Of a stretch of 36,462 nt of DNA, positions 6,282-31,491 are shown one piece after another (positions within the stretch are counted from its first letter, which is position 1; every line of letters starts with the position of its first letter). The notes beneath the pieces were generated by a model, which saw only the letters and a program-made list of their open reading frames with translations, did no database searches and was not told the origin of the DNA. The stretch is taken from assembly GCA_018813785.1 (NCBI GenBank), contig JAHJAU010000070.1:1-36462 (forward strand). Reading direction: 5' to 3'. Both the position numbers and the translations under genes were made by a program. This DNA comes from Patescibacteria group bacterium. Its GTDB lineage: Bacteria; Patescibacteriota; Patescibacteriia; SG8-24.

Positions 6282-6991
6282 TGCAGTCGTTTTTTAAGTG
6301 AAATTAACCGAAACAAATATTCCACGGCGAGTCGTGGTGCCAAAACTCGCGACTTTCGACCGGCAATTGTTTGCTCCTGCCAAATCACCGGGATTTCTTG
6401 CAAAACAAACCCAGCACGCTCGGCTCGAAGGATTAATTCTGTGTCGAAAAACCAACGTCGATCCTCAACTTGCGGCACAATTTGCTCAAACACGGCACGT
6501 GAAATGGCCTTAAAACCACATGGAGCATCGGACACTGAGGTCTTAAAAAGCAAATGCAGTAATGTCCGATAACCAAAAGAATACCAGCGTCGAAATCGCG
6601 AACGCATCACTTTTGACTGCGGATGAAAGCGCGATCCACTGGCCACTCCACCGCCAGTGATGACCGCTTCATACAAGGACGGTAAAGCTTTTAAATCTGT
6701 CGACAAATCGATATCCATAAACGTAAAAACGTCAGCCGGAGCCGATTGCCAGGCGGCCAGTACCGCTCGACCTTTGCCCCGTTCAGTCAAACGCAGATAA
6801 CGAACTGATTGATTTTCTTGAGCTAAAAGTAAGCCAATCTCTTTAGTCCGATCGGTCGAACCATTGTCCGCAATTACAACCAGACACTCGACCCCTGGCA
6901 ATGTCAGGCGCACAGACTCAAGCACACGCTCTACTGAACGGCGTAACAATAATTCCTCATTCAAAACTGGCAGGGCTATGATCAGGCGCAT
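6278..6991 (-). CDS. Glycosyltransferase family 2, polyprenyl/dolichyl-phosphate glycosyltransferase (DPG synthase-like)
   Basis: PVLNEE, IADNGSTDRT, GKGRAV, FMDIDLS, GSRF, DAPCGFK and WFFDTEL motifs. Start at MRLIIALP. Confidence 0.9.
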   Translation of the reverse strand: MRLIIALPVLNEELLLRRSVERVLESVRLTLPGVECLVVIADNGSTDRTKEIGLLLAQENQSVRYLRLTERGKGRAVLAAWQSAPADVFTFMDIDLSTDLKALPSLYEAVITGGGVASGSRFHPQSKVMRSRFRRWYSFGYRTLLHLLFKTSVSDAPCGFKAISRAVFEQIVPQVEDRRWFFDTELILRAERAGFVLQEIPVIWQEQTIAGRKSRVLAPRLAVEYLFRLISLKKRLQ

Positions 6992-6998
6992 AATCCGA

Positions 6999-8585
6999 TC
7001 ATGGGAAAAGCATAAATATTTGTACTTCCTCATCTTCGTACACTAAACGAAAATCGTTGTCAGCCTCAACGGCACTTCGAAAATCTGCCTCAACTTTTCG
7101 CACTAGCACATATTGCGCATCGAAAGATTTAACCACGGCCGACAAATCCGGTGTCCGATTTTCGACCGCCGCGCGCCAAGCAATAAATCTGGCCGGATCT
7201 TTCAGATATAAAAAGGTTGGATCAAGACCGGCAATATAATGAAATTCTGGTGCTCGATAAAACAACGCTGGAAAATCTGCCCAATTGCCATGAAAAACCA
7301 TGGCATCAACCGGCAGATGTAACTGCATCCAACTCGTTGCTGATTCAAATCTAGTCCAGGGAGTACTTGGTTTGTCCCAATGAAAAGATTTCGTCACCAG
7401 GTAAACGTCGCGAATCGCTAGCAACGGAAAAACCAGACAGAGAAATAAGCCAGCTACTGCGACAAATCGTTGTGAACCACCGAAAGATAGCTGCCAAAGT
7501 CGCCGCAAATTAAATCGCCTAAATAACAAATCAAATGACGCGCCTGCCAGAAGCAGGGCGAACGGCACAAAATATTCCACGTGGCGCTGACTCTTAATTG
7601 CCAGCAATAAAAAAACAATGGAAATAATCGCGAGGGCAAAAACATGAGAACAACGCTCCGGCCAATCAGTCGGCACAACACTGCGTCGAACTTGCTCTTG
7701 CCACAGACGAGCACTCAACCACACCACAGCCGCAATGATGAGCAATAAAAAAACCGACCCGTTTTGTCTAAATAGACTGGATGGTTCATAGGGCAACCAC
7801 TCCTGACCGACATTAATCACATCAGCATAATTGATCAAAGCAGCGTGTACGGTCTGATACCAGTAAAAAAGTAAGTTCTGTGGAAAAAAAGGATTGATAA
7901 TCAAGCCGGCCAACGTACCGCCGATTGATGCGATCGGCAAGATCAATCTCTCTTTCTTAAATAATTTTTGTGGTTCCTTTTCCGTCAACCAAAAACAAAC
8001 CGTGATGAAAATCAATAATGGCCAACTGCCATGTGCCCAAACGTAAATAAAAGAAAGTCCGGCCAGAGCCAACCAATTCCGGCGGGCTAGCGCTGCCACT
8101 CCCAACATAAGCAAAACCACTGATAGTGAAGCAGCTTTGGCTAAATTCAGGCGAAACATGAAATTCATTGATGTCGCCAAGACAGTTGCAAGAACGAGCG
8201 GCAAAATGGAGTGCAAACGCAAGGAACGAGCGGCAAAATAAAAAGCCGTAATCGCCGCCGCACCAAATATCACTGCCGCCACTTTTAATCCAGCCAGCGA
8301 CCCGAATAACCAACCAAACGGAATGAGCAGTAGATGATAAAAAAAATGCTGATCGGCAAAAGTGTCGGCCAGTGTGGTAAATGGTAACCACGGAAACTCC
8401 GTTACCGGTGCGATCTGCTGAACAATCAACCGGGTGATCCCGGCATGATAAAAAGAATCGGGGTCTTTAAAGGATGGTTGAAGCTGGATCAAGGTATAAA
8501 GAGCTAAGGGAAGCAAAAAAACAGCCACGTATCCCAAACGGGGACGAGTTACAAATAAGCTTAAAAATGCTTTTACCTTGCTCAT
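6999..8585 (-). CDS. Polytopic membrane protein, putative GT-C glycosyltransferase-like
   Basis: 528 aa; DPDSFYH after the first TM helix (GT-C-like acidic loop), FPWLP, EW.PY and GLDPTF motifs; first gene of an operon with the GT2. Confidence 0.75.
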   Translation of the reverse strand: MSKVKAFLSLFVTRPRLGYVAVFLLPLALYTLIQLQPSFKDPDSFYHAGITRLIVQQIAPVTEFPWLPFTTLADTFADQHFFYHLLLIPFGWLFGSLAGLKVAAVIFGAAAITAFYFAARSLRLHSILPLVLATVLATSMNFMFRLNLAKAASLSVVLLMLGVAALARRNWLALAGLSFIYVWAHGSWPLLIFITVCFWLTEKEPQKLFKKERLILPIASIGGTLAGLIINPFFPQNLLFYWYQTVHAALINYADVINVGQEWLPYEPSSLFRQNGSVFLLLIIAAVVWLSARLWQEQVRRSVVPTDWPERCSHVFALAIISIVFLLLAIKSQRHVEYFVPFALLLAGASFDLLFRRFNLRRLWQLSFGGSQRFVAVAGLFLCLVFPLLAIRDVYLVTKSFHWDKPSTPWTRFESATSWMQLHLPVDAMVFHGNWADFPALFYRAPEFHYIAGLDPTFLYLKDPARFIAWRAAVENRTPDLSAVVKSFDAQYVLVRKVEADFRSAVEADNDFRLVYEDEEVQIFMLFP

Positions 8586-20795: not shown

Positions 20796-21142
20796 AAAAC
20801 TTGTCGTTACCGAGCTATGCCTTGTTTCGTGTTGGTTTTCAGCCGTTAAGCTAACCCGTTCGGGCTTCATCCCAATCCTAGTTACGTAGCAGATTTGGCA
20901 TGGTAGAGCCGTATTTTTGCGGTTCTCCTCCCCTGCATTTCGATTCGTGCGCCGCAAGTGGCAAAATCTTCATTCGCGATTAATATACGTCTGAATTATT
21001 GCTTCATAATTTACCCCCATGTTGAGCCAAAAAAATAGTTTGTTACCAACACGATTCAAGGCATAACTCTCATTACCCTGATAGTACACTGGGGGTCAAG
21101 GCTTTAATCTATAGTATAGGTTAAAGTTCTAACCACCTAATT

Positions 21143-21177
21143 AAAAAACCGGCCGCACCCCTGATGGATGCGACCGG
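21143..21177 (-). terminator. Terminator of the dikinase-phosphatase module
   Basis: Minus strand CCGGTCGCA...TGCGGCCGG followed by TTTTTT immediately after the metallophosphoesterase stop. Confidence 0.7.
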
Positions 21178-21185
21178 CAAAGAGA

Positions 21186-21926
21186 CTAGTAACCAATGAG
21201 CAGACGCTGCCCCAGTTCCGAGGGCAGTCCCAGCTCGGCAATCTGACGAACTACAGCTGCGACATCGTACTCAACGCGTGGCAGACTGAAACTCCAGTCG
21301 CTGGTGTCGAGCAGGCCGTAACAGGCTCGCGGGTCATCGTCGCGCGGCTGACCAACACTGCCGACGTTGATCAAGAACCGCTCATCGCCGGACAATACCA
21401 GTTCGGTCTGGTGATAGAACGAACCGCTCCGTTCACCGAAGACCTGGGGCTCATGCGTGTGTCCGACGAAGAACACTCTCAGGTCATCGTGCGGCAAACG
21501 TTTGAGCTCAATTCCCGCGCCGACCGAACCCTCGACGTAAAAAAACGTTGCCGGATGAGAAAACGATGCATGGGTGAAAGCCAGGCCATGATCCTCATCC
21601 CAGAGACAGTCGGGCAGACCGTCCAGATAGTCGAGCTGAGGCTGTTGCAACGCGAGAGCGGTGAACCGAACCGCTTCTTTGGCGATTTGGTTGAAGTTAC
21701 GAGCCCAGCGCTCTGAATCGAGCACCGCAGCCTCGTGGTTACCGAGCACTGTCTTGATCCGCTCGAGCTGGATCCGGATCACACACTCTCGCGGTTGCGG
21801 ACCGTACCCGACCACATCCCCCAGACAGACCATCTGATCCACGCCGCCACGCGCGCGGATATCAGACAGGACTGCCTGCAGTGCGACGTAGTTTCCATGA
21901 ACATCAGAAATAATCGCGAACCGCAT
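21186..21926 (-). CDS. Calcineurin-like metallophosphoesterase (YfcE/MJ0912-like)
   Basis: ISDVHGN, LGDVVGYG, GNHE, THAS, GHTH and NVGSVGQPRD motifs; AAGGAGG RBS. Confidence 0.92.
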   Translation of the reverse strand: MRFAIISDVHGNYVALQAVLSDIRARGGVDQMVCLGDVVGYGPQPRECVIRIQLERIKTVLGNHEAAVLDSERWARNFNQIAKEAVRFTALALQQPQLDYLDGLPDCLWDEDHGLAFTHASFSHPATFFYVEGSVGAGIELKRLPHDDLRVFFVGHTHEPQVFGERSGSFYHQTELVLSGDERFLINVGSVGQPRDDDPRACYGLLDTSDWSFSLPRVEYDVAAVVRQIAELGLPSELGQRLLIGY

Positions 21927-21968
21927 GGCAGTCCTCCTTTCCTTGCGTTGTTAGCGCCGTTTCGTTTA

Positions 21969-22463
21969 TCAGCGCAAATTCAGATATTGCGAGGGCACTT
22001 CCCGGCCTCGCAACGAGAAAATCCCTTCGGCCTGAGCCATGGTCTCGACAGCGTGGTGGCAATGCCGCTCACGCACCGCGGCGATCGGGTCAGGCGTTTC
22101 TTCCTCGGTCTCCAGGATGGCGATGAGTGACGCGAGCAGTGTACCGGTTCGCCCATGTCCGGCGGTGCAGAAGCACAGCACTCGCTCCCCGGTCTGGTGG
22201 CATCTCGCGAGCAGCGGGATTACCCGCCCGCACAAGAACTCCACCCAGTCGTCCGGCACACCGCCGAAGTCCGGCAATTGAGCGGATAGCACCAGGAAAA
22301 AGTTGCCGATGCCCAGTGGGGGCAATTGTTCGGTGAGCGGAATCAGCACATCGAACTCGGACAGGATGTCCGGGTCGAGGTGCATGGCTCCAGCGACATA
22401 GATCGTATAGGGGCCAACCTGGATCGGCTGGCCGGTGTGTGAATGAGCATCCTTCTGTCTCAT
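21969..22463 (-). CDS. Cys-based dual-specificity/tyrosine phosphatase (CX5R)
   Basis: PDFGG acid loop, FCTAGHGRTGT P-loop, VRERHC..AVET..Q; GGAGG RBS before ATG at 22463. Confidence 0.88.
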   Translation of the reverse strand: MRQKDAHSHTGQPIQVGPYTIYVAGAMHLDPDILSEFDVLIPLTEQLPPLGIGNFFLVLSAQLPDFGGVPDDWVEFLCGRVIPLLARCHQTGERVLCFCTAGHGRTGTLLASLIAILETEEETPDPIAAVRERHCHHAVETMAQAEGIFSLRGREVPSQYLNLR

Positions 22464-22602
22464 CTCGTCCTCCGCAGCTAATCCGTTACCCCTTGTAACA
22501 GATGAGCAGTGAGAGGGGGAAGCGCTGAAAAGATTCAACGCTTCCCCAGATGCCCCCGAGAGAAATCAGAGAGCGGTTGGGTGATCAGACCGAAACAAAG
22601 AT

Positions 22603-23013
22603 CTAGTAGGCCTCCTCCGCCTCGTCGTCGTCCGCCTCGTCCGCGGCCGACGACGAGCAGCACCCGGCCGCTGCCTGCTCGACGCGCTTCATGGCGGCCT
22701 TCACCACGACCACCTCTCCGCCGACCGCCTCGAGTGCGGCGCGCGCGATCCCGATCGCCTGGAGCAGCTCGCTGTCCGGGACCACGCACGAGAACCGGAA
22801 CTCCCCGTCGCTGGGCGTCTTCCAGCCGGCCGGGATGTGCGGCCGCATCATCTCGGCACCGATCATATCGGTCGGCTCCAGCCTGATCCGACTGGAGTCG
22901 CCACCGTCCAGGATACGCCGACTCAATCGGCCGGCCGCGTTCTCCGTCAGCAGCTGGTAGCTACCGGGGATCCCCTCGGTACCGGCGAACCGATACCTTC
23001 CGTTCTTTGCCAT
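22603..23013 (-). CDS. Hypothetical protein (136 aa) with an acidic C-terminal tail
   Basis: AAGGAGG RBS; GC-rich codon use; ends CCSSSAADEADDDEAEEAY; lies inside the module. Confidence 0.75.
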   Translation of the reverse strand: MAKNGRYRFAGTEGIPGSYQLLTENAAGRLSRRILDGGDSSRIRLEPTDMIGAEMMRPHIPAGWKTPSDGEFRFSCVVPDSELLQAIGIARAALEAVGGEVVVVKAAMKRVEQAAAGCCSSSAADEADDDEAEEAY

Positions 23014-23172
23014 GACTTCCTCCTTACCCGTCTCCTCCCCTTGAGAAGACGGCTAATAGAGGGAGAAGCGCCAAAAGGCGGGCGACGCTTCTCACTCAAG
23101 AAGATTTCCGAATCGCCAGACCAGGCGACCCAGAAAGAGCTTTATGATTTGAAAGAACTTGAGCAGGAGCCA

Positions 23173-25536
23173 CTACCACAGACCGCCGGCTTGTCCCTGA
23201 AGGTACAGCGTGGATATTTCCGGCGAAATGGTACCAGCCGCTTCGCCAGCAATAAATTTGTCGTACAACCCCCTGACGCCACCCTGGTGATCACGCTTGG
23301 TGTCCAATAGTTGATCCAGATGCCAAAGGTTTCCGACCAGAAAATCTTTGGTCTTGTTGAACATCCGACCACCGTTGTGTTGCAGATCGAAAGCGTGATC
23401 CACGAACACCGTGGCTGTAACCTTGCCTTCGAGCCACGACAGGGCGGCCGCGCAGATATCCGCCCACTTGATTCCACCAAACGACGTACTCCATTTCAAA
23501 TGGCGGAAGGCATTTTCTGCCCGCTGCAGAAAAATTATCTGTTGCTCGAGCGGCAGTAACTCCAATTGGTCAGCAACAGACCTCTGCGCTTCGATTCGAT
23601 CAACGCCTTCGTCAATCACCCCATACTTTTGTAGTTCAGCATGGACCAACTCTCGATCTAAGATCAGAGGGTTGCTATAGGCACTGCTTCGAACGTGACG
23701 CAACTCTCCGGCTGCTGCCAAGACGATATAAGTGGCCATCAACTCAGCGGCCTCCTGATGTTCTTGATGCTGGAGCTTTTGGACTGCTCTCGAAAGCTCG
23801 GCTGTGGCATTGAGACTACTACTGGCCGCAGCCATGGCTTCGATCAGGTAGAAGCTCCTCGCCAACTGCACCACGTTAATACTCTCGCCTCGTCGCTCGA
23901 GGGCGATTCGTGGGGCGTGAGCCCTTTTGTCAATCTCCGGCTGATGGATCCTCTTGTACCACCGCAGGAAAATTTTAATTTCTCTACGGTGGATGCCGAA
24001 CTCCATGGGCAGCTCACCCTGAAGCACCACACCACTCGTGCCGTCAACTGAAACCCACTGAAGGGGCGACAGCTTCAAGCATAAGTCCGCCTGAACACCC
24101 ACTACCGCCGGTTTGTTCAGACTCCGAGCCACCACCGCGGCATGCGATGTCGCGCCGCCGACTTCGGTGACGATAGCATCAGCCGCCAGCATCCCTGGTA
24201 GATCATTGGGTGAAGTCTCTGTCCGAAACAGCACCACCGAACAACCAGCTCCCTTCAATTGACGAGCTTGCTCCGAGGTAAGGGCCGGCCGGCCGGTCAC
24301 TGCTCCAGGCGAAGCCGGAATACCGCGAGCCAGAAAACGATTGGGGTCAGCCACAGCCTGAGCCAGCTCATTAGTCCGAAAGACTGACCGATCCAACTGT
24401 GCTAGCTGAGCTGTAGTCATCGCCCTTCGCTCAAGCGCTTGCTCCTTGGTGAAACGCTTTTCCCAAACCATCTGCACGGCATGAGAAACGGCCGCCACCG
24501 GGGTGCGCTTGGCCAGTCGAACCTGGAGAATGAACAGTCGGCCAGATTCGATCGTGAACTCTACATCCACGACGTCGTCAAAGTGCTGTTCGAGCAGTAT
24601 ACAGATCTGACTCAGCTCCTGATAAACCCCGGGATTCCAACTTTCGAGTTCAGCGATCGGTCGCGGTGTCTTAACACCAGCCACCACATCTTCGCCTTGA
24701 GCGTTTGGCAGCCACTCACCATAGAGCTCGCGCTCGCCGGTGGCGACATTGCGAGAAAAAACAACTCCAGTTCCGGAATCGTCTCCTCGATTACCGAACA
24801 CCATGGCTTGAATGTTAGCGGCGGTTCCGAGCCAACTGGGAATGTTGTTGGCTCGGCGATAAGCCCGGGCACGCTCTGACTCCCAACTGCGAAACACAGC
24901 ACGGCTGGCCATCGTTAACTGAGTCCAGACGTCGTCTTCCATGGAACCGGCGCGACGCTGAATCAGTTGCCGACAGTTGCGGCAGAACTTCTTCAGAGCT
25001 CTGACATGGAACGACTCACGATCGTGATCGCACCCGTTCTTCTGCCACAACTTATCAAACTCACTGGCTGCGATCCCATGAACCACGGTACCGTAACTGA
25101 CCAGAAATCGCCGATAGCAATCCCAAGCGAACCGTTCGTCTCCGGTTTCCCTGGCCAGCGCCAGAACTGTGTCCGGATTAAGTCCGAGATTCAGGATTGT
25201 ATCCATCATCCCGGGCATGGAGTGCTCGGCGCCGGACCTGACCGACACCAGCAGCGGCTTGACCAAATGACCAAAGCCACGACCAGTCGACTGCTCCAAT
25301 CCTTCCATTTCTCGAACGATCTGACCAAACTGCCGACGCGGCAGATGGCCATGCTGTAGTGACGACCGCCCCACGCTTGTGGTGACGGTGAAACCGGGCG
25401 GCATGGGTACACCAAGGTGCACCAGTTCCGCCAAGGAGAAACCCTTGCCGCCACGCTTGGCGGCTGACAGATGGGCGGAACTTTCGAATCCGCAAACCAC
25501 CTGACGATTCCGCCTGCGAGACGCTTTCTTTCCCAT
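23173..25536 (-). CDS. PPDK-derived dikinase: ATP-grasp domain + phospho-His swivel domain + unrecognised C-terminal domain (not canonical PpdK)
   Basis: GGKG, VSVRSGA..SMPGMMDTILNLG, QAMVFGN..SGTGV, AQGEDVVAG, DVEFTIE..L..LQ.R and GGATSHAAVVAR (His465). The PEP/pyruvate barrel motifs (MIE.PRA, SFGTNDLTQ) are absent. Confidence 0.9.
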   Translation of the reverse strand: MGKKASRRRNRQVVCGFESSAHLSAAKRGGKGFSLAELVHLGVPMPPGFTVTTSVGRSSLQHGHLPRRQFGQIVREMEGLEQSTGRGFGHLVKPLLVSVRSGAEHSMPGMMDTILNLGLNPDTVLALARETGDERFAWDCYRRFLVSYGTVVHGIAASEFDKLWQKNGCDHDRESFHVRALKKFCRNCRQLIQRRAGSMEDDVWTQLTMASRAVFRSWESERARAYRRANNIPSWLGTAANIQAMVFGNRGDDSGTGVVFSRNVATGERELYGEWLPNAQGEDVVAGVKTPRPIAELESWNPGVYQELSQICILLEQHFDDVVDVEFTIESGRLFILQVRLAKRTPVAAVSHAVQMVWEKRFTKEQALERRAMTTAQLAQLDRSVFRTNELAQAVADPNRFLARGIPASPGAVTGRPALTSEQARQLKGAGCSVVLFRTETSPNDLPGMLAADAIVTEVGGATSHAAVVARSLNKPAVVGVQADLCLKLSPLQWVSVDGTSGVVLQGELPMEFGIHRREIKIFLRWYKRIHQPEIDKRAHAPRIALERRGESINVVQLARSFYLIEAMAAASSSLNATAELSRAVQKLQHQEHQEAAELMATYIVLAAAGELRHVRSSAYSNPLILDRELVHAELQKYGVIDEGVDRIEAQRSVADQLELLPLEQQIIFLQRAENAFRHLKWSTSFGGIKWADICAAALSWLEGKVTATVFVDHAFDLQHNGGRMFNKTKDFLVGNLWHLDQLLDTKRDHQGGVRGLYDKFIAGEAAGTISPEISTLYLQGQAGGLW

Positions 25537-25696
25537 TTCCCTCTCCTGGGTTTGACCCGGTGCACCGGGCGACTTTGTTTTGTTGTTGATTGTAAATATC
25601 TAAAACGCCTTAAGGCGTTTGATTGGAATAGCCAAAAAGTTACAGCAATTTTCTGACTGACCCAACCAAGAGCCTAAGCCATTTTTAAAACTCTAA

Positions 25697-25725
25697 AATA
25701 TAGCAAATCTCTGCGTAATTGTCAA
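25697..25725 (-). promoter_or_regulatory. Sigma70-like promoter of the dikinase module
   Basis: Minus strand TTGACA-N17-TATATT with an extended -10 TG. Confidence 0.7.
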
Positions 25726-25740
25726 GATTATTAAACAAGT

Positions 25741-25769
25741 GACCCAGCTCCAATTTCTGGAGCTGGGCC
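25741..25769 (-). terminator. Strong hairpin closing the non-coding region (probable terminator)
   Basis: CCCAGCTCCA-GAAAT-TGGAGCTGGG followed on the minus strand by TCACTTGTTT, a weak U-tract. Confidence 0.55.
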
Positions 25770-25789
25770 GTAAGGTAACAAAAAAATTT

Positions 25790-27158
25790 TCTTAGTGGCC
25801 ATTTGTCATGCGCCCCCAAGGCCGTGCGGAGGCACTTCCGTTTTTCAGGTCAGCGCCATGACTGCGCTTTTTCGATCGAATGTAGTAGTTCGACATCGAA
25901 CGTCGATCTAGACCTGAAGCATCATCAGCCTGAACCAAGGCCGAGAATTGACATCCTCGTGGAAGTAGCGAGGCTGTCCAAGCGGCAAGAATCGCTTCCG
26001 TGGTGGTTTGGTGACCACCTTTTCCACTTTCCTATTTCTTGAAGGGCTTGTCGCAACGGGCTTTACCCATCGCCTAGGTTCATCCTTCAGCTAAAACCTG
26101 ACCAATCATAGACTCATCCACTCGTCTTGTATAACTTTTCAAAAGCGTTATACATCAGCGTGAATAAGCCAAGCACTCTTCTCCGCCCTTTATTAATTAT
26201 TTGCATTGAAAAGTGTTACTGATCAGGCCCTAACCCCGTCTGTCCGGGGTGCGGAGACGCCACTTCCGCTTCAGTTGTCCCATCAATCCAGTGATGGGCG
26301 TGAAATCGGTCGCTGGTAGAATGACAGACTCCAACCAACTCCACTGTTTCAGTGGCAGACACAGTACACCGCCATCAAACAGCTTCCCTCTTTTTAACGG
26401 TGCCTTCACCGAGGGAGATGAAAACACCGCATAAACTCACCTCACCAACGGTTTTATGAATTCCGCTGGCAAAATGATCGGACGGGGCCTATTCGGTCTC
26501 TATCATTCAGGCGATTTCCAACCGCCGGGTTGAAAAAACCTTTCGGGTACCCTTAGCCGCCAGGTGTCTAGCCGTCGGCTAACTCGATTCAGCTTTCAGT
26601 TGATGATTCAGTTCGGTTGCGAGCCGTACCAGATCGTCAATCTCGGTTCTTGATACCTGCCCGATTTAGGCATCAAGCAATAAACCGCAATGACCTCTGA
26701 ATCTTAAAGTCACCGTCTCTTTATCGACCCGCCGGTCGCGTAGGGAAAGAGACTACCCAGCTATTTGATGAAAGTTCTCTGATCGTCCTACCCAGGATGA
26801 TCCAACTCCCACCTTGATGGCCGATCCGGACACGCCGCTGCCCGACCTAATCACTCCTCGGTCTGCTTACCAAAAAGAAAATAGGTTTTAATTTGCTCGT
26901 TTACTCCTTGAGCTCAGTGTGCAGCGGGGATTTCACCCGCACTCCCTCCACGCCTGGTTTATAAAAATTTTTTACCAGGTTGAACGGATTCAGCTTTGGT
27001 CTGAACACACAAACGAGCGGACCTTTTTAAATAAGTGCTTAGAGCAGCGCACCTATCGAGCTGACTTTTTGTTAACGGGCTCCGTCAGCGATTGAGCCCT
27101 AGTAAACGCACATCCTAATCCTCCCTCTTTATCTGAACCTGCGACGACGTTGTCGCAG
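25790..27158 (-). ncRNA. Candidate cluster of large structured non-coding RNAs, family unknown
   Basis: No credible ORF in ~1.4 kb; many hairpins, mostly with G-U pairs and A-rich loops on the minus strand; end-to-end closing helices; AT-rich linkers; own promoter and terminal hairpin. Confidence 0.6.
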
Positions 27159-27164
27159 AGAAAA

Positions 27165-27193
27165 AAAATAACATAAAAAGTCGGATTAGTCAA
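27165..27193 (-). promoter_or_regulatory. Putative promoter of the non-coding region
   Basis: Minus strand TTGACT-N17-TATTTT with an extended TG; the predicted start near 27158 coincides with the first hairpin. Confidence 0.45.
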
Positions 27194-27208
27194 GATTGTG
27201 TTAGGTAC

Positions 27209-28321
27209 CCCCAATTCAATACATAACCGAACACTTCAGTGTAACATTGCCGATTAGGCATAACTGTAGTAATCATGTCAAAAAAGACGCATTTGAAGGA
27301 GTTCGAGAGGGAGAAGATCGAGTACTGGCTGAGGCTGGGGTTCGGCAACAACGAGATCGCCAGGAAGCTGGCTCGCAGCGGATCGTCAGTGTCCGACGAG
27401 ATCCGCCGCAACAGCAACCCAGACGGTAAGTATACGGCGGCGGATGCCCAGCGCCGAGCCGACCAGAGACGAGAGCGAAAGAAGGGTCGGAAGCTCGAAA
27501 GGGACGCCGTGCTACACGACTACGTAGTCTCCCTGCTCCGCGGCGACGGCATGCTACAGGGCTGGGCGCCGGACGCGATCGCCGGGCGGCTGAAGCACTA
27601 CCCAGAGCTGGTGCCGGAGGAGTTGCGGGGGAAGACCGTCTCGCACGAGGCGATATACCAGTACATATACGAAGGCGAGGGAAAGTGGGAGGCGCTGTAC
27701 CACCACCTGCCCAGGAAGCGCAGCCGCAGGAGGATCAAAGAGGGCAGGAAAACGCGTCAGCAGAGCAAAATACCGAACAGGGTGAGCATCCGGCTACGAC
27801 CGGCCGAAGTCAATGAGAGGAAGACGTTCGGCGACTGGGAAAGCGACACCTTCGAGGGTACGGGATCGGCGTGCGGATCTGTGCAGGTGGAGCGCAAGTC
27901 GAGGAAGATTCACCTGCACAGGACGGCGGACAAGACCAAGGAGGAGACCGAACGAGCCATCAGGCAGACCATCGAGTCATATCCGGAATACCTGCGGGGC
28001 GAGGCGTTCCGGACGATGACCCTCGACAACGGTGGCGAGGGCGCGAACCACGGGAAATTGAGGAGGGAATACGGCATCGACACCTACTTCTGCGACCCGT
28101 ACTGCTCGTGGCAGAAGGGCTCGGTGGAGAACGCCATCGGCCTCGTGCGGCTGAGGTTCATTCCAAAGAAAACAAATCTCTCGACCCTTTCGGATCGAGA
28201 GTTCATGCTCATGGAGGACTTCCTGAATGACATGCCCGGAAAGTCTCTCGGGCACCTTACGCCGAATGAGGTCGCGGCGCAATATTTGTGAGAGGTGTTC
28301 GGTTATTAGCTTGAATTTGGG
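27209..28321 (+). mobile_element. IS30-family insertion sequence
   Basis: Imperfect terminal inverted repeats CCCCAATTCAATACATAACCGAACAC and GTGTTCGGTTATTAGCTTGAATTTGGG around a transposase; GC-richer than the flanks; no clear target-site duplication. Confidence 0.88.
27275..28291 (+). CDS. IS30-family DDE transposase
   Basis: N-terminal HTH (IARKLARS.SSVSDEIRRN), VSHEAIYQYIY, FGDWESDT, TLDNG.E and YFCDPYCSWQKGSVEN. Confidence 0.93.
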   Translation: MSKKTHLKEFEREKIEYWLRLGFGNNEIARKLARSGSSVSDEIRRNSNPDGKYTAADAQRRADQRRERKKGRKLERDAVLHDYVVSLLRGDGMLQGWAPDAIAGRLKHYPELVPEELRGKTVSHEAIYQYIYEGEGKWEALYHHLPRKRSRRRIKEGRKTRQQSKIPNRVSIRLRPAEVNERKTFGDWESDTFEGTGSACGSVQVERKSRKIHLHRTADKTKEETERAIRQTIESYPEYLRGEAFRTMTLDNGGEGANHGKLRREYGIDTYFCDPYCSWQKGSVENAIGLVRLRFIPKKTNLSTLSDREFMLMEDFLNDMPGKSLGHLTPNEVAAQYL

Positions 28322-28457
28322 AATGTCAAAGGTAAGCTAAAAACTGACACCCCCCCAACCAGGATTTATATGTTATGGTATATGAGTTGACTTAAATAAA
28401 GACTCAAATCGTTGCTAACGATCGACGAGTCCGCTCTTTAAAAGATCGAGGTGTGTT

Positions 28458-28904
28458 TTGATTACAGAACTCAAAGAGTTGCTCGATGAGGTGGCGGCTA
28501 TTCCAGATGATCAAATTGAGGAGCCGAGCTTGAAGATTGCTCCAGAACATTTTGTGGTCGGTCGAATCGACGATCTAAAACTACGGCGCATTTTTACCGC
28601 CTATACACGTCGAGTTCGCGAACTGAGTCAATTGCATCAAGCGGTTCGTGGACCAATGTTAGTAGCGCGAAATATCCCTACTACAATCCAGACTAAAATG
28701 ATCGAATTACAGGACGAGCTGGATCTACTACGACAAATTTTTTTCTATGCTCTTAGCAAACGATTTGGTTTGTTCGGGCGACCGTTTATTCATGTTCACG
28801 TTGGCTGGCTGGTCAGTTGGTCGAATCGATCAACATCAACTCCGGCCTGCTCCGGTTCAGAAACGACGTTCGACAATGATAACAATGATCAAAACACCAA
28901 CTAA
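28458..28904 (+). CDS. Hypothetical protein, paralog 1 of 3
   Basis: GAGG RBS before TTG; shares ELK.LL.EV..IP, L+R+.TA, LL+.+FFY.L.KR and GW...W with the next gene; followed by a terminator (28917-28938). Confidence 0.75.
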   Translation: MITELKELLDEVAAIPDDQIEEPSLKIAPEHFVVGRIDDLKLRRIFTAYTRRVRELSQLHQAVRGPMLVARNIPTTIQTKMIELQDELDLLRQIFFYALSKRFGLFGRPFIHVHVGWLVSWSNRSTSTPACSGSETTFDNDNNDQNTN

Positions 28905-29045
28905 ATCTTAAAACTATCGGGTTTTGCCCGATTTTTTTATTGAGTTACAGCCAACACTAAAACTAAACCCCGAAGCCTTGAATGAATTGACGATGTTCAG
29001 CCGCCATGTTAAAAAGCGGAAGGTGAAGTAAGCATACTTTGCTAC

Positions 29046-29522
29046 ATGGAGGTTCACTTGCCCAAACACAGAGATTTTGCCGAACTCAAAGACCTGCTGG
29101 CTGAGGTGCAAAAAATTCCCCTCAGTGAGGTGGTCGATATACCGTACGACCTTGAGGAGGGTCAGCATGCTTTCGCCACAGTGAAACACGCTGATCTCAA
29201 GCGACTCTACACGGCACAAGTAGAACGCATACAACGAGTGAAAAAATTACGCGTTCAATTACCGGAAAAACTGGCGGGTGATCCGAAGATCGCTGAAACA
29301 CTGATCGATCAAATAGAGAACGCGGCGCAAGAGGTCGAACTTCTGAAGCATCTATTCTTCTACTTGTTGCTGAAACGCTACGCACCACCCTCATATGAAA
29401 CGATCGGTGTCGCCCGTGGCTGGCAAATCTACTGGGAAGGGCCCAGGGCAAACGAAGAACTGTTCAGCCTGATCACCTTCTCTAACCTTGATAATCCGGA
29501 CGGCACAGAAGACCCGGATTAA
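29046..29522 (+). CDS. Hypothetical protein, paralog 2 of 3
   Basis: Same motif pattern; start may instead be TTG at 29058 after GGAGG; followed by a terminator (about 29544-29568). Confidence 0.75.
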   Translation: MEVHLPKHRDFAELKDLLAEVQKIPLSEVVDIPYDLEEGQHAFATVKHADLKRLYTAQVERIQRVKKLRVQLPEKLAGDPKIAETLIDQIENAAQEVELLKHLFFYLLLKRYAPPSYETIGVARGWQIYWEGPRANEELFSLITFSNLDNPDGTEDPD

Positions 29523-29616
29523 ACCTCTCGGACCAATCATCTCGCGCTGAGTTTATTAGCGCTTTTTTATTATTTTTTAACTATACTGAATAAGCACCTT
29601 TGCTTCGGAGTCTAAA

Positions 29617-30051
29617 ATGAAAAAATGTTTGATCGAAATTATTGGACAGCTGGAACGTGTCAGTCCAGAGGATCTCAAACTGTTTGCCCCACGTTTACCG
29701 ATCGGCCCAAAAGACGATGTGTTCGGCGAGTTGAACTCTGAACTTCGTCCGCTGTATGTGGTCGGACTGCAATTACAGCGCCTGATCGGACTCATCGAAA
29801 ATCTGGCCACCGACGAAGCACAGTTCGAGGATGTTCTGCCCGAGTTACGCCAACGGGCCACGGTGGTCAATGCCCTATTCTGGATCGCAGTCGCCGAGAA
29901 CTTCCCGCGTTTCCGCGATGGTGATATGGCGGTGATATTCAAAAACTGGCTCGTCGGACGACGTTGCGACTCTGTGGCCGGAGAAAAAATATTGGGTAGT
30001 AGTCAACAATTCACCTTTTCCAATTTCGGTGGCAATGGTATTGATGCCTGA
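29617..30051 (+). CDS. Hypothetical protein, more distant paralog 3 of 3
   Basis: GGAG RBS; V.G.+..LR.LY ... LFW.....F ... W.V pattern parallels the two upstream genes; terminator at about 30101-30123. Confidence 0.7.
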   Translation: MKKCLIEIIGQLERVSPEDLKLFAPRLPIGPKDDVFGELNSELRPLYVVGLQLQRLIGLIENLATDEAQFEDVLPELRQRATVVNALFWIAVAENFPRFRDGDMAVIFKNWLVGRRCDSVAGEKILGSSQQFTFSNFGGNGIDA

Positions 30052-30229
30052 GACTATGAAAAGAACGTCTGCCTACCGCGCCAACACCTTGTCAAAAACA
30101 AGCCGTCAACTTTGACGGTTTTTATTATCCAACAAAATCTAGAGACTATTTTAACTAAAAAGTGTCGGAGACTTTAATAACCTAGACATAACTTTCTCCA
30201 CCCGCTACCTTAGCGACGAGGAGAATCAA

Positions 30230-30829
30230 ATGAATGCAACGATCTTTTCCGTGGATGTTGAGGCTACAGGTCGAACACCGGCCAGTGCCAGCCTGTTGTC
30301 GATTGGTGCCTGTGTTGTAGGTAGCGAACACGAATGTTTTTACTGCGAGCTGCAACCGATCAATGATGGTTATCTGGTCGAGGCGATGCGCATCGGTTGC
30401 CTGGGTCTTAGTTGTTTGCCAAAACGAATTGGCTTTGATCCCAGCAAACCATCGTTTCGTCCGGACTTGGTTTTGCAGCTGATGCGGAAAAACGGCCAGG
30501 ATACAGCGAACGCTATCCCTGAATTTTGCCGCTGGGTCAAAACTGTGGCCGGCAATACTGCAGCCATCTTTGCTAGTGACAATCCGGTCTTTGATGGTCT
30601 GTGGGTGTTCTATTATATTGATCGCTTTTCTGCGGATCCGAATCCGTTCGGTCACAGCGGCCTGTCACTCAACTCAGTGGCCAAAGGCGCGGCCGGAAAT
30701 TTACGCACTACCATGAAAAGAATGATGCGAGTTAAACAGCGGGGCGTAAAGCACAATGCGCTCGATGATGCTCGACATAATGCCAGGCTATTTGAAATCT
30801 TGGCCGAGCGATATCAAATCAAACTTTGA
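30230..30829 (+). CDS. DEDDh 3'-5' exonuclease (RNase AS/DnaQ-like)
   Basis: Exo I SVDVEATG, Exo II DNPVFD, Exo III HNALDDA; GAGGAG RBS; terminator at 30832-30859. Confidence 0.85.
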   Translation: MNATIFSVDVEATGRTPASASLLSIGACVVGSEHECFYCELQPINDGYLVEAMRIGCLGLSCLPKRIGFDPSKPSFRPDLVLQLMRKNGQDTANAIPEFCRWVKTVAGNTAAIFASDNPVFDGLWVFYYIDRFSADPNPFGHSGLSLNSVAKGAAGNLRTTMKRMMRVKQRGVKHNALDDARHNARLFEILAERYQIKL

Positions 30830-30982
30830 TTAAACACCAGCGCTGTCTGGTGTTTTTTTATTCATCAGACAAAGATAACTTGGCGTCTAGCCTGACCAAT
30901 TTAGACTGCTGGCATGAAACAAAATTTTAACTAGACAAAAAACCGCGCCGAAGCACGGTCTTTTATATTCTGGTCGCCGAAT

Positions 30983-31264
30983 CTACAATACAGCTTCTTT
31001 AGTCGGCTTAGAAACACGAAACTTCACAACGGTTTTAGCTGGAATTTTGATCGCTTCACCGGTAGCCGGGTTTCGACCCATACGAGCAGCGCGCTGTTGT
31101 CTGATCAGCTTGCCGATGTTCATCAATGGGAACTCACCGTTCTTTTTAACCTCGGAGAGAGCCATTGCCTCGTACATCTCGAGAAATTCCTTAATTTCCT
31201 TTCTTGGCTTTTCGGCCTTTTCGGCCAGCGCAGCAATAACCTGCGTTTTGGTCATCTTCGCCAT
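30983..31264 (-). CDS. hup: HU family DNA-binding protein
   Basis: MTKTQVI..LAEK, IGKL and RAARMGRNPATGEAIKIPAKTVVKFR. Confidence 0.95.
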   Translation of the reverse strand: MAKMTKTQVIAALAEKAEKPRKEIKEFLEMYEAMALSEVKKNGEFPLMNIGKLIRQQRAARMGRNPATGEAIKIPAKTVVKFRVSKPTKEAVL

Positions 31265-31491
31265 AGCGATATAAACTTTATTATGAATAACACCACTTAT
31301 AGATAAACGATTTAAGGCTAGCTGTGAAGGGGATAAGCTCTAAAGATATTCACAGGTAAAAATCTGAATCAATTTCTAATAACAATAATCCGATCAGCTA
31401 GCCAATTATTCCACGAAAGACCAGTTGCGATTTTATTGAACGACAGCTAACCTATAGCTGTTCCTTTTAATAAAAAGAAAGGCGGAGGCAA

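Follow-up and report, generated by a model that had tools for sequence, protein, structure and literature searches.

What is encoded by a long gene-free stretch that lies directly upstream of a dikinase gene in a genome of the Patescibacteria? The stretch (positions 25741-27193) is part of a window of 36,462 nucleotides (nt), the whole DNA analysed here, which is contig C45 of a genome (G000) of 1.19 Mb and 97% completeness. A sequence-only reading had described it as an array of large structured RNAs on the minus strand. The present analysis indicates that it encodes a structured RNA that has no match in Rfam and is dedicated to the cluster of an atypical dikinase resembling pyruvate, phosphate dikinase (PPDK). 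The conserved parts of this new dikinase-cluster RNA are a core with five hairpins (H1-H5) and a further hairpin, P6, and its role is most likely that of a regulatory sensor.

No open reading frame (ORF) of at least 80 amino acids (aa) was detected between 25566 and 27205 under translation table 11, and recoding of TGA as tryptophan, or of TAG or TAA as glutamine, opened no long frame either (four genetic codes in all). The 1.7 kb from 25565 to 27275 form the largest gap in the window between ORFs of at least 100 aa, flanked by the dikinase gene on the minus strand and by an IS30-like transposase gene on the plus strand. A promoter-like site and an intrinsic terminator delimit the stretch on the minus strand, and the dikinase has its own promoter beyond the terminator (Table 1). 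The ORF-free unit of about 1.4 kb running from promoter to terminator, as first proposed, was thus borne out. All seven stems listed in the sequence-only reading can be read on the minus strand, two of them being recovered by a repeat search as well, and its three AT-rich linkers (at about 27025, 26875 and 26195) are also readable there.

BLAST searches with the region returned only the region itself from 60 relatives, 37 genomes of the order, phages and plasmids, and only noise of 18-47 nt from 400 genomes of the class. Homologues were found first via synteny with the dikinase and then via covariance models. A dikinase orthologue was present in 4 of the 37 genomes of the order. The stretch upstream of it was ORF-free over 1.76 kb in G001, a genome of the same genus, and over 1.44 kb in G007, which belongs to another genus of the same Patescibacteria family; in both, the order was promoter, RNA, terminator, second promoter and dikinase. 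The three stretches were collinear by nhmmer (G000 and G001, E = 3e-10, in the 5' part; G000 and G007, E = 4e-12, in the 3' two-thirds; G001 and G007, E = 1e-20). The terminators of G001 and G007 lie at the same place as in the window, are stronger and carry U-runs, and the separate dikinase promoter follows them as it does in the window; TTGACA promoters occur at the equivalent place in relatives. The promoter and terminator of its own expected of a stand-alone non-coding RNA gene were therefore present in all three genomes. They were not both present in G337, a genome of the window's own class, or at the Saccharibacteria locus L083, where versions of about 1.2 kb have no terminator ahead of the dikinase. 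The cassette with the RNA was found in three different genomic contexts, in line with its being mobile as a unit, and the dikinases of these genomes are only about 50% identical, yet the RNA has been kept by compensatory changes.

Of 24 windows of 300 nt, 22 gave the minus strand the better fold, with z-scores inside the region of about -1 to -5 against about -1 to -3.4 for the plus strand. Since the coding flank in the dikinase gene also reached -1.2 to -2.8, the region-wide folding signal alone is modest. The segment from the core to P6 (26390-26030) gave z = -5.41, and none of 100 shuffled sequences folded as well. RNAalifold on the three sequences of G000, G001 and G007 predicted the hairpins H1-H5 between 26390 and 26225. 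In this three-sequence alignment (A3), 88% of the cells were paired compared with 30-52% when the partners were slid, 13 of 41 pairs had changed on both sides, and none of 500 shuffles reached the observed values. An alignment of 18 sub-cores (H3-H5) made with MAFFT only, and hence not fitted to a structure, again yielded H3-H5, with 15 of 17 pairs showing compensatory changes. In the model-fitted alignment of 19 sequences, 91.7% of the cells were paired (32-40% when slid) and 37 of 40 pairs were compensatory. Covariation among homologues was thus present in all three alignments, and together with the homologues themselves it establishes the structured non-coding RNA on the minus strand that had been predicted. 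The 1.4-kb stretch is a real structured RNA, not junk or a dead gene.

Almost no weight can accordingly be given to non-functional DNA, whether as the remains of a former gene, as the trace left by a mobile element or as part of the neighbouring IS30-like element. An IS30-like element does abut the region, the cassette lies inside an insertion relative to G001, and the BLAST searches described above gave no DNA homologue. Against this, the six read-through frames (X at stops) matched no Pfam or PHROGs family at E <= 1, and hidden Markov models (HMMs) of the cassette proteins detected no relic in the region or its homologues (all E > 0.5), which also answers the earlier concern about a decayed protein gene. 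The IS30-like element extends to 27209 and stops 16 bp short of the -35 box of the RNA, on its upstream side, which corrects the earlier note; its terminal 54 nt recur on contig C54 (2197-2250) at 94% identity and also in G001, the copy on C54 shares 27209-27262 only, and the contigs of two public sequencing runs diverge at 27208/27209. Because the end repeat recurs on C54 and the contigs diverge at 27209, the element is a neighbour of the RNA and not part of it. Moreover, compensatory changes and conservation across phyla are incompatible with neutral DNA.

A search of a genome contig collection with the C-terminal domain of the dikinase gave 34 loci, in Patescibacteria (Nomura-, Magasanik-, Morani- and Saccharibacteria) and many in Obscuribacterales/Melainabacteria; single records of the domain came from Planktothrix, Chloroflexota and Binatia. 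The covariance model R1, trained on G000, G001 and G007 only, matched the Saccharibacteria locus L083 upstream of its dikinase with E = 4e-13 (356 kb searched) and two further loci weakly. The model R2, built from five sequences, gave 16 matches at E < 0.02 in 399 kb, among them G337 at E = 6e-11; 14 of the 16 were outside the training set. The model R3, built from the MAFFT-only alignment of the 18 sub-cores, added 10 further matches in 264 kb. The window core itself scored 140 bits with R1 and 116 bits with R2. Altogether, the core was present at 28 of 36 loci of this dikinase family, compared with none of 12 control loci (three from Actinomycetota and nine of a paralogue), and all 24 matches outside the training sets lay on the dikinase strand. 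The Actinomycetota loci, which have a related N-terminal part of the dikinase, are fully coding upstream and showed no RNA match. R1 matches in G013 (E = 0.008) and G004 (E = 0.02) were rejected as they lie inside long ORFs, and an antisense palindromic match at locus L045 together with three matches at E = 0.09-0.28 was taken as noise.

An unbiased scan covered 41 whole Melainabacteria genomes (2.8-9.6 Mb) of the order that contains locus L101. R3 gave 14 matches in 10 genomes, and the profile of the dikinase C-terminal domain was found in 14 genomes; nine genomes had both, five the dikinase alone and one the RNA alone, which lay where a small contig ends. For 12 of the 14 RNA matches, the dikinase was on the same contig and strand, no more than 2.5 kb away. 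The core was single-copy and adjoined the dikinase in five Patescibacteria genomes; searches of 150 further genomes of the class with R1 and R2 gave no match, the filters being strict and only part of the candidates scored. These results show that compensatory changes have preserved the core and P6 across Patescibacteria and Melainabacteria, and that both are nearly confined to the neighbourhood of this dikinase, invariably on its strand. The functional tie to the dikinase module that had been suggested from position alone is now backed by co-occurrence across two phyla. A separate paralogue of 860-960 aa shares only residues ~28-565 with the window dikinase (loci L047-L064); it is far commoner, being present in 21 of 400 genomes of the class, and had no core RNA at the nine loci tested.

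P6 was located by regular expression at 23 loci, on the plus strand only. Its inner 7-bp stem was intact in all 19 aligned copies, with wobble and compensatory changes, and the flanks ACCUAG and GACA were conserved; the outer stem differs wholly in sequence between genomes with its pairing kept. A MAFFT alignment of seven P6 sequences gave no consensus fold, and that of 19 sequences gave the inner stem only. In eight compact loci, P6 ends 33-58 nt ahead of the start codon of the dikinase, in the order core (~155 nt), spacer hairpins (90-165 nt), P6 (~50 nt), 33-58 nt including the Shine-Dalgarno (SD) sequence, and start codon. In most relatives, the entire element amounts to a 5' leader of some 380 nt that precedes the dikinase or a gene next to it. 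Two loci have two copies, each preceding a gene, and what follows the element at several Melainabacteria loci is not the dikinase but unnamed small genes of the cluster. Anti-SD-like pairings appeared in single-sequence folds. The compact geometry is that of a cis-acting leader, whether riboswitch or protein-binding operator, because P6 sits at a short set distance before start codons and second copies precede other genes.

The form found in the window is an expansion of this element that was found in a few Patescibacteria. After P6, the window, G001 and G007 carry about 290 nt of extra sequence, the 3' domain, followed by the strong terminator and the near-consensus dikinase promoter. A hairpin in this domain, AGCGC-AGUCAUG-GCGCU at 25868-25852, reads GCGC/GCGC in G000 and G001 and GCGU/ACGC in G007. 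The linker between the core and the P6 module has equivalents in G001 and G007 (ACUUU..GCAUAAAAA). Toward the 5' end, the region of island A is shared with G001 (nhmmer E = 3e-10 over the 5' 415 nt) and is absent from G007; a similar hairpin followed by a tail was seen by eye only in G337 and L083. A motif resembling island B, GGUCGAGCGG, was likewise seen by eye near the 5' end of the G007 RNA. Scans with the island-A motif were rejected as informative, since the 13 matches in the genome contig collection are about the chance number (one being G001) and the single match in metagenome contigs, at a contig end and without the 5' arm, is probably due to chance. A short ORF after an SD-like stretch near the 5' end of the RNA was also rejected as a leader peptide, having 4, 18 and 17 codons in G000, G001 and G337 and no shared peptide. 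Upstream of the RNA promoter of G007 (L045 7700-7900), short direct repeats with AGACCUGACCCC are present three times; an Rfam match there to mir-1265 (E = 0.048) was discarded as chance-level.

The RNA is modular, because G007 lacks the first 300-500 nt. This modularity bears on the possibility that the stretch is an array of independent or processed small RNAs, with the AT-rich linkers as sites of processing or limits of the units. The G007 RNA is only about 800 nt long, has none of the first two units of the earlier description and begins near island B; relatives have anything from 1 to 168 nt between core and P6; and the boundaries proposed at about 26875 and 26195 do coincide with module boundaries. 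The units as separate RNAs found no support. There is a single extended -10 promoter-like site and one strong terminator, the internal promoter-like site at 26133-26105 being weak (9 of 12 matches), the core and P6 always occur together and in the same order, and the units are not repeats of one another. An array is therefore improbable.

Expression data were taken from public sequencing runs. Thirteen of these, from six studies of groundwater and biofilm, contain the sequence, among them a single metatranscriptome, in which 70% of the sampled words occur. In the latter, a contig covering 26229-26899 had a depth of 24 compared with 5-12 on the flanking contigs, which is a weak hint in that carry-over of DNA is possible, and three DNA runs were flat over 26244-26945. 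Cover is missing for parts of the stretch in some runs, and contig depth cannot rank genes. The ends of this contig near two AT-rich linkers would suit an array, but contig ends are not RNA ends; the higher depth agrees weakly with transcription of the stretch. A diverged variant of the 5' part of the RNA, with a loose end at 27101, was also present in the metatranscriptome.

Table 1. Features of the dikinase-cluster RNA and its surroundings (positions in the window)
Feature	Position	Strand	Description and basis
Whole predicted RNA transcription unit	25741..27158	-	~1.42 kb; ORF-free; promoter and terminator; no protein-family match
RNA promoter-like site	27165..27193	-	Sigma-70-like TTGACT-17 nt-TG-TATTTT; 9/12 matches, extended -10; predicted start ~27158
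5' module, island A	27061..27099	-	Hairpin GGGCUC..GAGCCC, then A-rich tail (UAACAAAAAG); conserved with G001
Island B	26812..26847	-	GGUCGGGCAGCGG..GUCCGG..CAUCAAG; start of central module; conserved with G001
Conserved core	26225..26390	-	~155 nt, hairpins H1-H5; covariance models, covariation and homologues
Sub-core H3-H5	26298-26228	-	H3 loop with C(C/U)GG, H4 loop with UGGCG
AT-rich linker, core to P6 module	26185..26207	-	Single-stranded; sequence; equivalents in G001 and G007
P6 (island C)	26041..26088	-	Outer stem GAAGG/CCUUC, internal loop ACCUAG / GACAA, inner stem GCGAUGGG/CCCGUUGC
3' domain	25770..26040	-	Family-f1 genomes only; low-confidence nhmmer alignment to G001 and G007
RNA intrinsic terminator	25741..25769	-	13-bp stem, 8 G-C pairs
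Dikinase promoter	25697..25725	-	TTGACA-17 nt-TG-TATATT; 11/12 matches, near-consensus
Atypical PPDK-like dikinase	23173..25536	-	787 aa; Pfam PPDK_N and PEP-utilizers only
Small cassette protein	22603..23013	-	136 aa; no family match
DSP PTPase-like phosphatase	21969..22538	-	189 aa
IS30-like element	27209..28291 or 28340	+	HTH_38 and rve transposase (27275-28291), 338 aa

On this evidence, the core and P6 are proposed to act as a regulatory sensor of dikinase-cluster expression, a reading to which a probability of about 0.5 is assigned and for which we infer a ligand or protein partner. The core and P6 would bind either a metabolite of the pathway in which the dikinase and the phosphatase take part or a protein of the cluster, and this binding would set the expression of the cluster. 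In the family of the window, the element would have grown to 0.8-1.4 kb with a promoter and terminator of its own, and the dikinase would have its own strong promoter. Because of that terminator and separate promoter, two modes of action would be left to the sensor in the window genome: read-through of the terminator could be regulated, adding to the output of a basal promoter, or the RNA could work in trans by serving the same ligand or protein as a decoy or partner.

Several observations weigh against the sensor. The ligand, the logic of an expression platform and the protein contact are all postulated, and the evidence for transcription consists of contigs of one metatranscriptome that possibly contains DNA. 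Eight of the 36 family loci had no core match (two of these are cut contigs and two still carry the P6 motif), as had, under strict filters, five of the 14 dikinase-positive Melainabacteria genomes. The 5' 770 nt of the window RNA are conserved within the genus or family only. With respect to geometry, U-rich tails follow P6 in some compact loci only, the RNA lies 1.4-2.9 kb from the dikinase, before unnamed small genes, at several Melainabacteria loci, and P6 is about 500 nt from the start codon in G000, G001 and G007. In these three genomes a terminator and a near-consensus promoter stand between the RNA and the dikinase, by which a purely cis-acting switch would be bypassed; since the RNA has been maintained there nonetheless, some function independent of cis linkage is needed.

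A rival reading makes the RNA a trans-acting partner or substrate in a ribonucleoprotein, in which the stable stand-alone RNA would scaffold the pair of dikinase and phosphatase or would itself be phosphorylated and dephosphorylated by this pair, and its position in or before the operon would reflect co-inheritance only. Besides the promoter and terminator arrangement in three genomes, this idea would account for the large size with extra domains (0.8-1.4 kb), the highly conserved hairpin loops CCGG (a palindrome that could kiss) and UGGCG, the replacement of the pyruvate/phosphoenolpyruvate (PEP) barrel of the dikinase by a domain that matches neither a family nor a fold, the position of the RNA downstream of the dikinase at some loci and, weakly, the higher depth of the RNA-library contig over 26229-26899. 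We regard it as rather unlikely, as the fixed spacing of 33-58 nt between P6 and the start codon and the second copies before other genes typify cis-regulators, the cassette proteins have no recognisable RNA-binding domain and a contact of theirs with the RNA is hypothetical. A bolder version is a long shot: a PPDK-like dikinase whose pyruvate-binding barrel has been swapped for a helical domain without known relatives would bind the large folded RNA and might also phosphorylate it reversibly, with the DSP phosphatase as the eraser; if true, an RNA-centred phospho-cycle would exist on a mobile cassette in ultra-small bacteria and Melainabacteria.

The RNA was then compared with known families. 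Across the whole window, none of the 4227 models of Rfam 15 matched at its gathering score, and on 25400-27400 there was no match even at E <= 10. The eight homologous loci searched gave only chance-level hits below gathering, plus one unrelated tRNA. Rfam 15 presumably includes ROOL, GOLLD, OLE, raiA, HEARO, group I/II introns, RNase P, tmRNA, 6S, T-box and the known riboswitches. The absence of a known-RNA signature noted before thus extends to every Rfam family. No description of such an RNA or of a bacterial cassette of dikinase and DSP phosphatase was found in the parts of the literature that were searched, although a motif listed solely in the supplement of a survey could escape; motifs from structured-RNA surveys are normally deposited in Rfam. 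The RNA belongs to a family present neither in Rfam nor in the literature as far as it was searched.

OLE, ROOL, GOLLD and raiA are ornate large non-coding RNAs of bacteria and are represented in Rfam. Like them, the RNA of the window and its closest relatives is 0.8-1.4 kb long, has many hairpins and carries its own promoter and terminator, and as with OLE a neighbouring protein gene is co-inherited. Unlike them, its partner is a dikinase/phosphatase cluster rather than prophages, tRNAs or membrane proteins. The conserved part is just the core of about 155 nt and P6 of about 50 nt, and the majority of relatives have the form of short leaders. Neither the likening to ROOL, GOLLD and OLE in the sequence-only reading nor its array of large RNAs therefore found support; the window RNA is not a giant of that type or an array, because it is an expanded, self-terminated form of a short conserved element.

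T-box and cobalamin-type leaders offer other comparisons among gene-associated leaders. The dikinase-cluster RNA resembles orphan riboswitch candidates and leader RNAs in being built of several conserved hairpins that lie on the sense strand ahead of a single gene family, with conserved loop and junction nucleotides, covarying stems, a fixed spacing to the start codon in the compact forms and sometimes several copies per cluster. It differs from them in having no Rfam match and in forming, in the window, a self-terminated unit of 1.4 kb that is followed by a separate promoter of the gene. An almost exclusive tie to one gene is described for the yjdF motif (PMC4793209). By analogy, the element appears to work most like an orphan riboswitch candidate or gene-specific leader, and in the window genome it looks like a stand-alone ornate RNA.

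Three proteins are encoded along with the RNA in the cassette: the dikinase, a small one of about 130 aa, and a phosphatase of the DSP (dual-specificity) type. The dikinase comprises an ATP-grasp domain, a phospho-histidine swivel domain and, in place of the pyruvate/PEP barrel, a C-terminal domain of 284 aa. It matched TIGR01828 over profile positions 3-557 of 865 only, with 525.6 bits against a cut-off of 843, and judged by its sequence it falls outside pyruvate, phosphate dikinase, having no C-terminal PEP/pyruvate-binding barrel. The C-terminal 284 aa had no relative in the PDB by sequence (best E = 0.44), and a Foldseek search with the model of this part (pLDDT 76) gave no PDB match below E = 0.18. 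The HMM of the small protein detected 23 ORFs across the 36 loci searched (3 of them training genes), and that of the DSP phosphatase 24 ORFs across the 36 loci (4 of them training genes), mostly directly downstream of the dikinase. At locus L077 (4025-4375), from a metagenome-assembled genome of the Nomurabacteria, the small cassette protein (116 aa, HMM E = 1e-5) lies between the RNA and the dikinase and not after the dikinase. PADLOC found nothing among the cassette proteins. In the 5' untranslated region of the dikinase, a hairpin GCCCGG..CACCGGG just before the Shine-Dalgarno sequence is kept in G000 (25566-25600), G001 and G007 (in locus coordinates, L025 ~7236-7275 and L045 ~6545-6580).

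Glucan-water dikinase is linked with the DSP phosphatases SEX4/laforin in starch and glycogen metabolism (for example PMC9254107, PMC5779698). The likeness concerns the proteins only, namely the pairing of a phospho-histidine swivel dikinase with a dual-specificity-type phosphatase, which suggests a cycle of phosphorylation and dephosphorylation on one substrate. The cassette dikinase differs in its domain order, in its C-terminal domain without family or fold match and in that no carbohydrate-binding module was detected, and the cassette as a whole is bacterial and has an RNA component.

The cassette lies in a block of about 9-10 kb (~20960-31000) that is inserted relative to G001, where 1.7 kb separate the alkylation-repair gene from the HU gene. 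Apart from the cassette and the IS30 element, it contains a metallophosphoesterase, three unnamed small ORFs and a DEDDh exonuclease, which matches a PADLOC 'Effector' model (1.5e-32). The protein genes at 21-25.5 kb have 53-66% GC compared with a background of about 46%. A form skipping 27262-27854 of the IS30-like element was observed in three runs. An HU/IHF-like DNA-binding protein gene of 93 aa lies at 30983-31264 on the minus strand; the conserved block at 31004-31336, with 79% identity to G001 and ~70% to two other genera, was accordingly rejected as an RNA, being this gene instead.

In summary, the dikinase-cluster RNA represents a further, well-supported class of structured RNA, without a match in Rfam and present in at least two distant lineages, the Patescibacteria and the Melainabacteria, the latter being non-photosynthetic relatives of the cyanobacteria. 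Gene-associated RNAs of this sort have repeatedly led to new metabolites or signalling molecules. The RNA is a direct experimental handle, in that its binder would reveal what the system of dikinase, DSP phosphatase and small protein does. Because both mRNA leaders and expanded autonomous forms exist in it, the family is a natural case for how cis-regulatory RNAs become independent.

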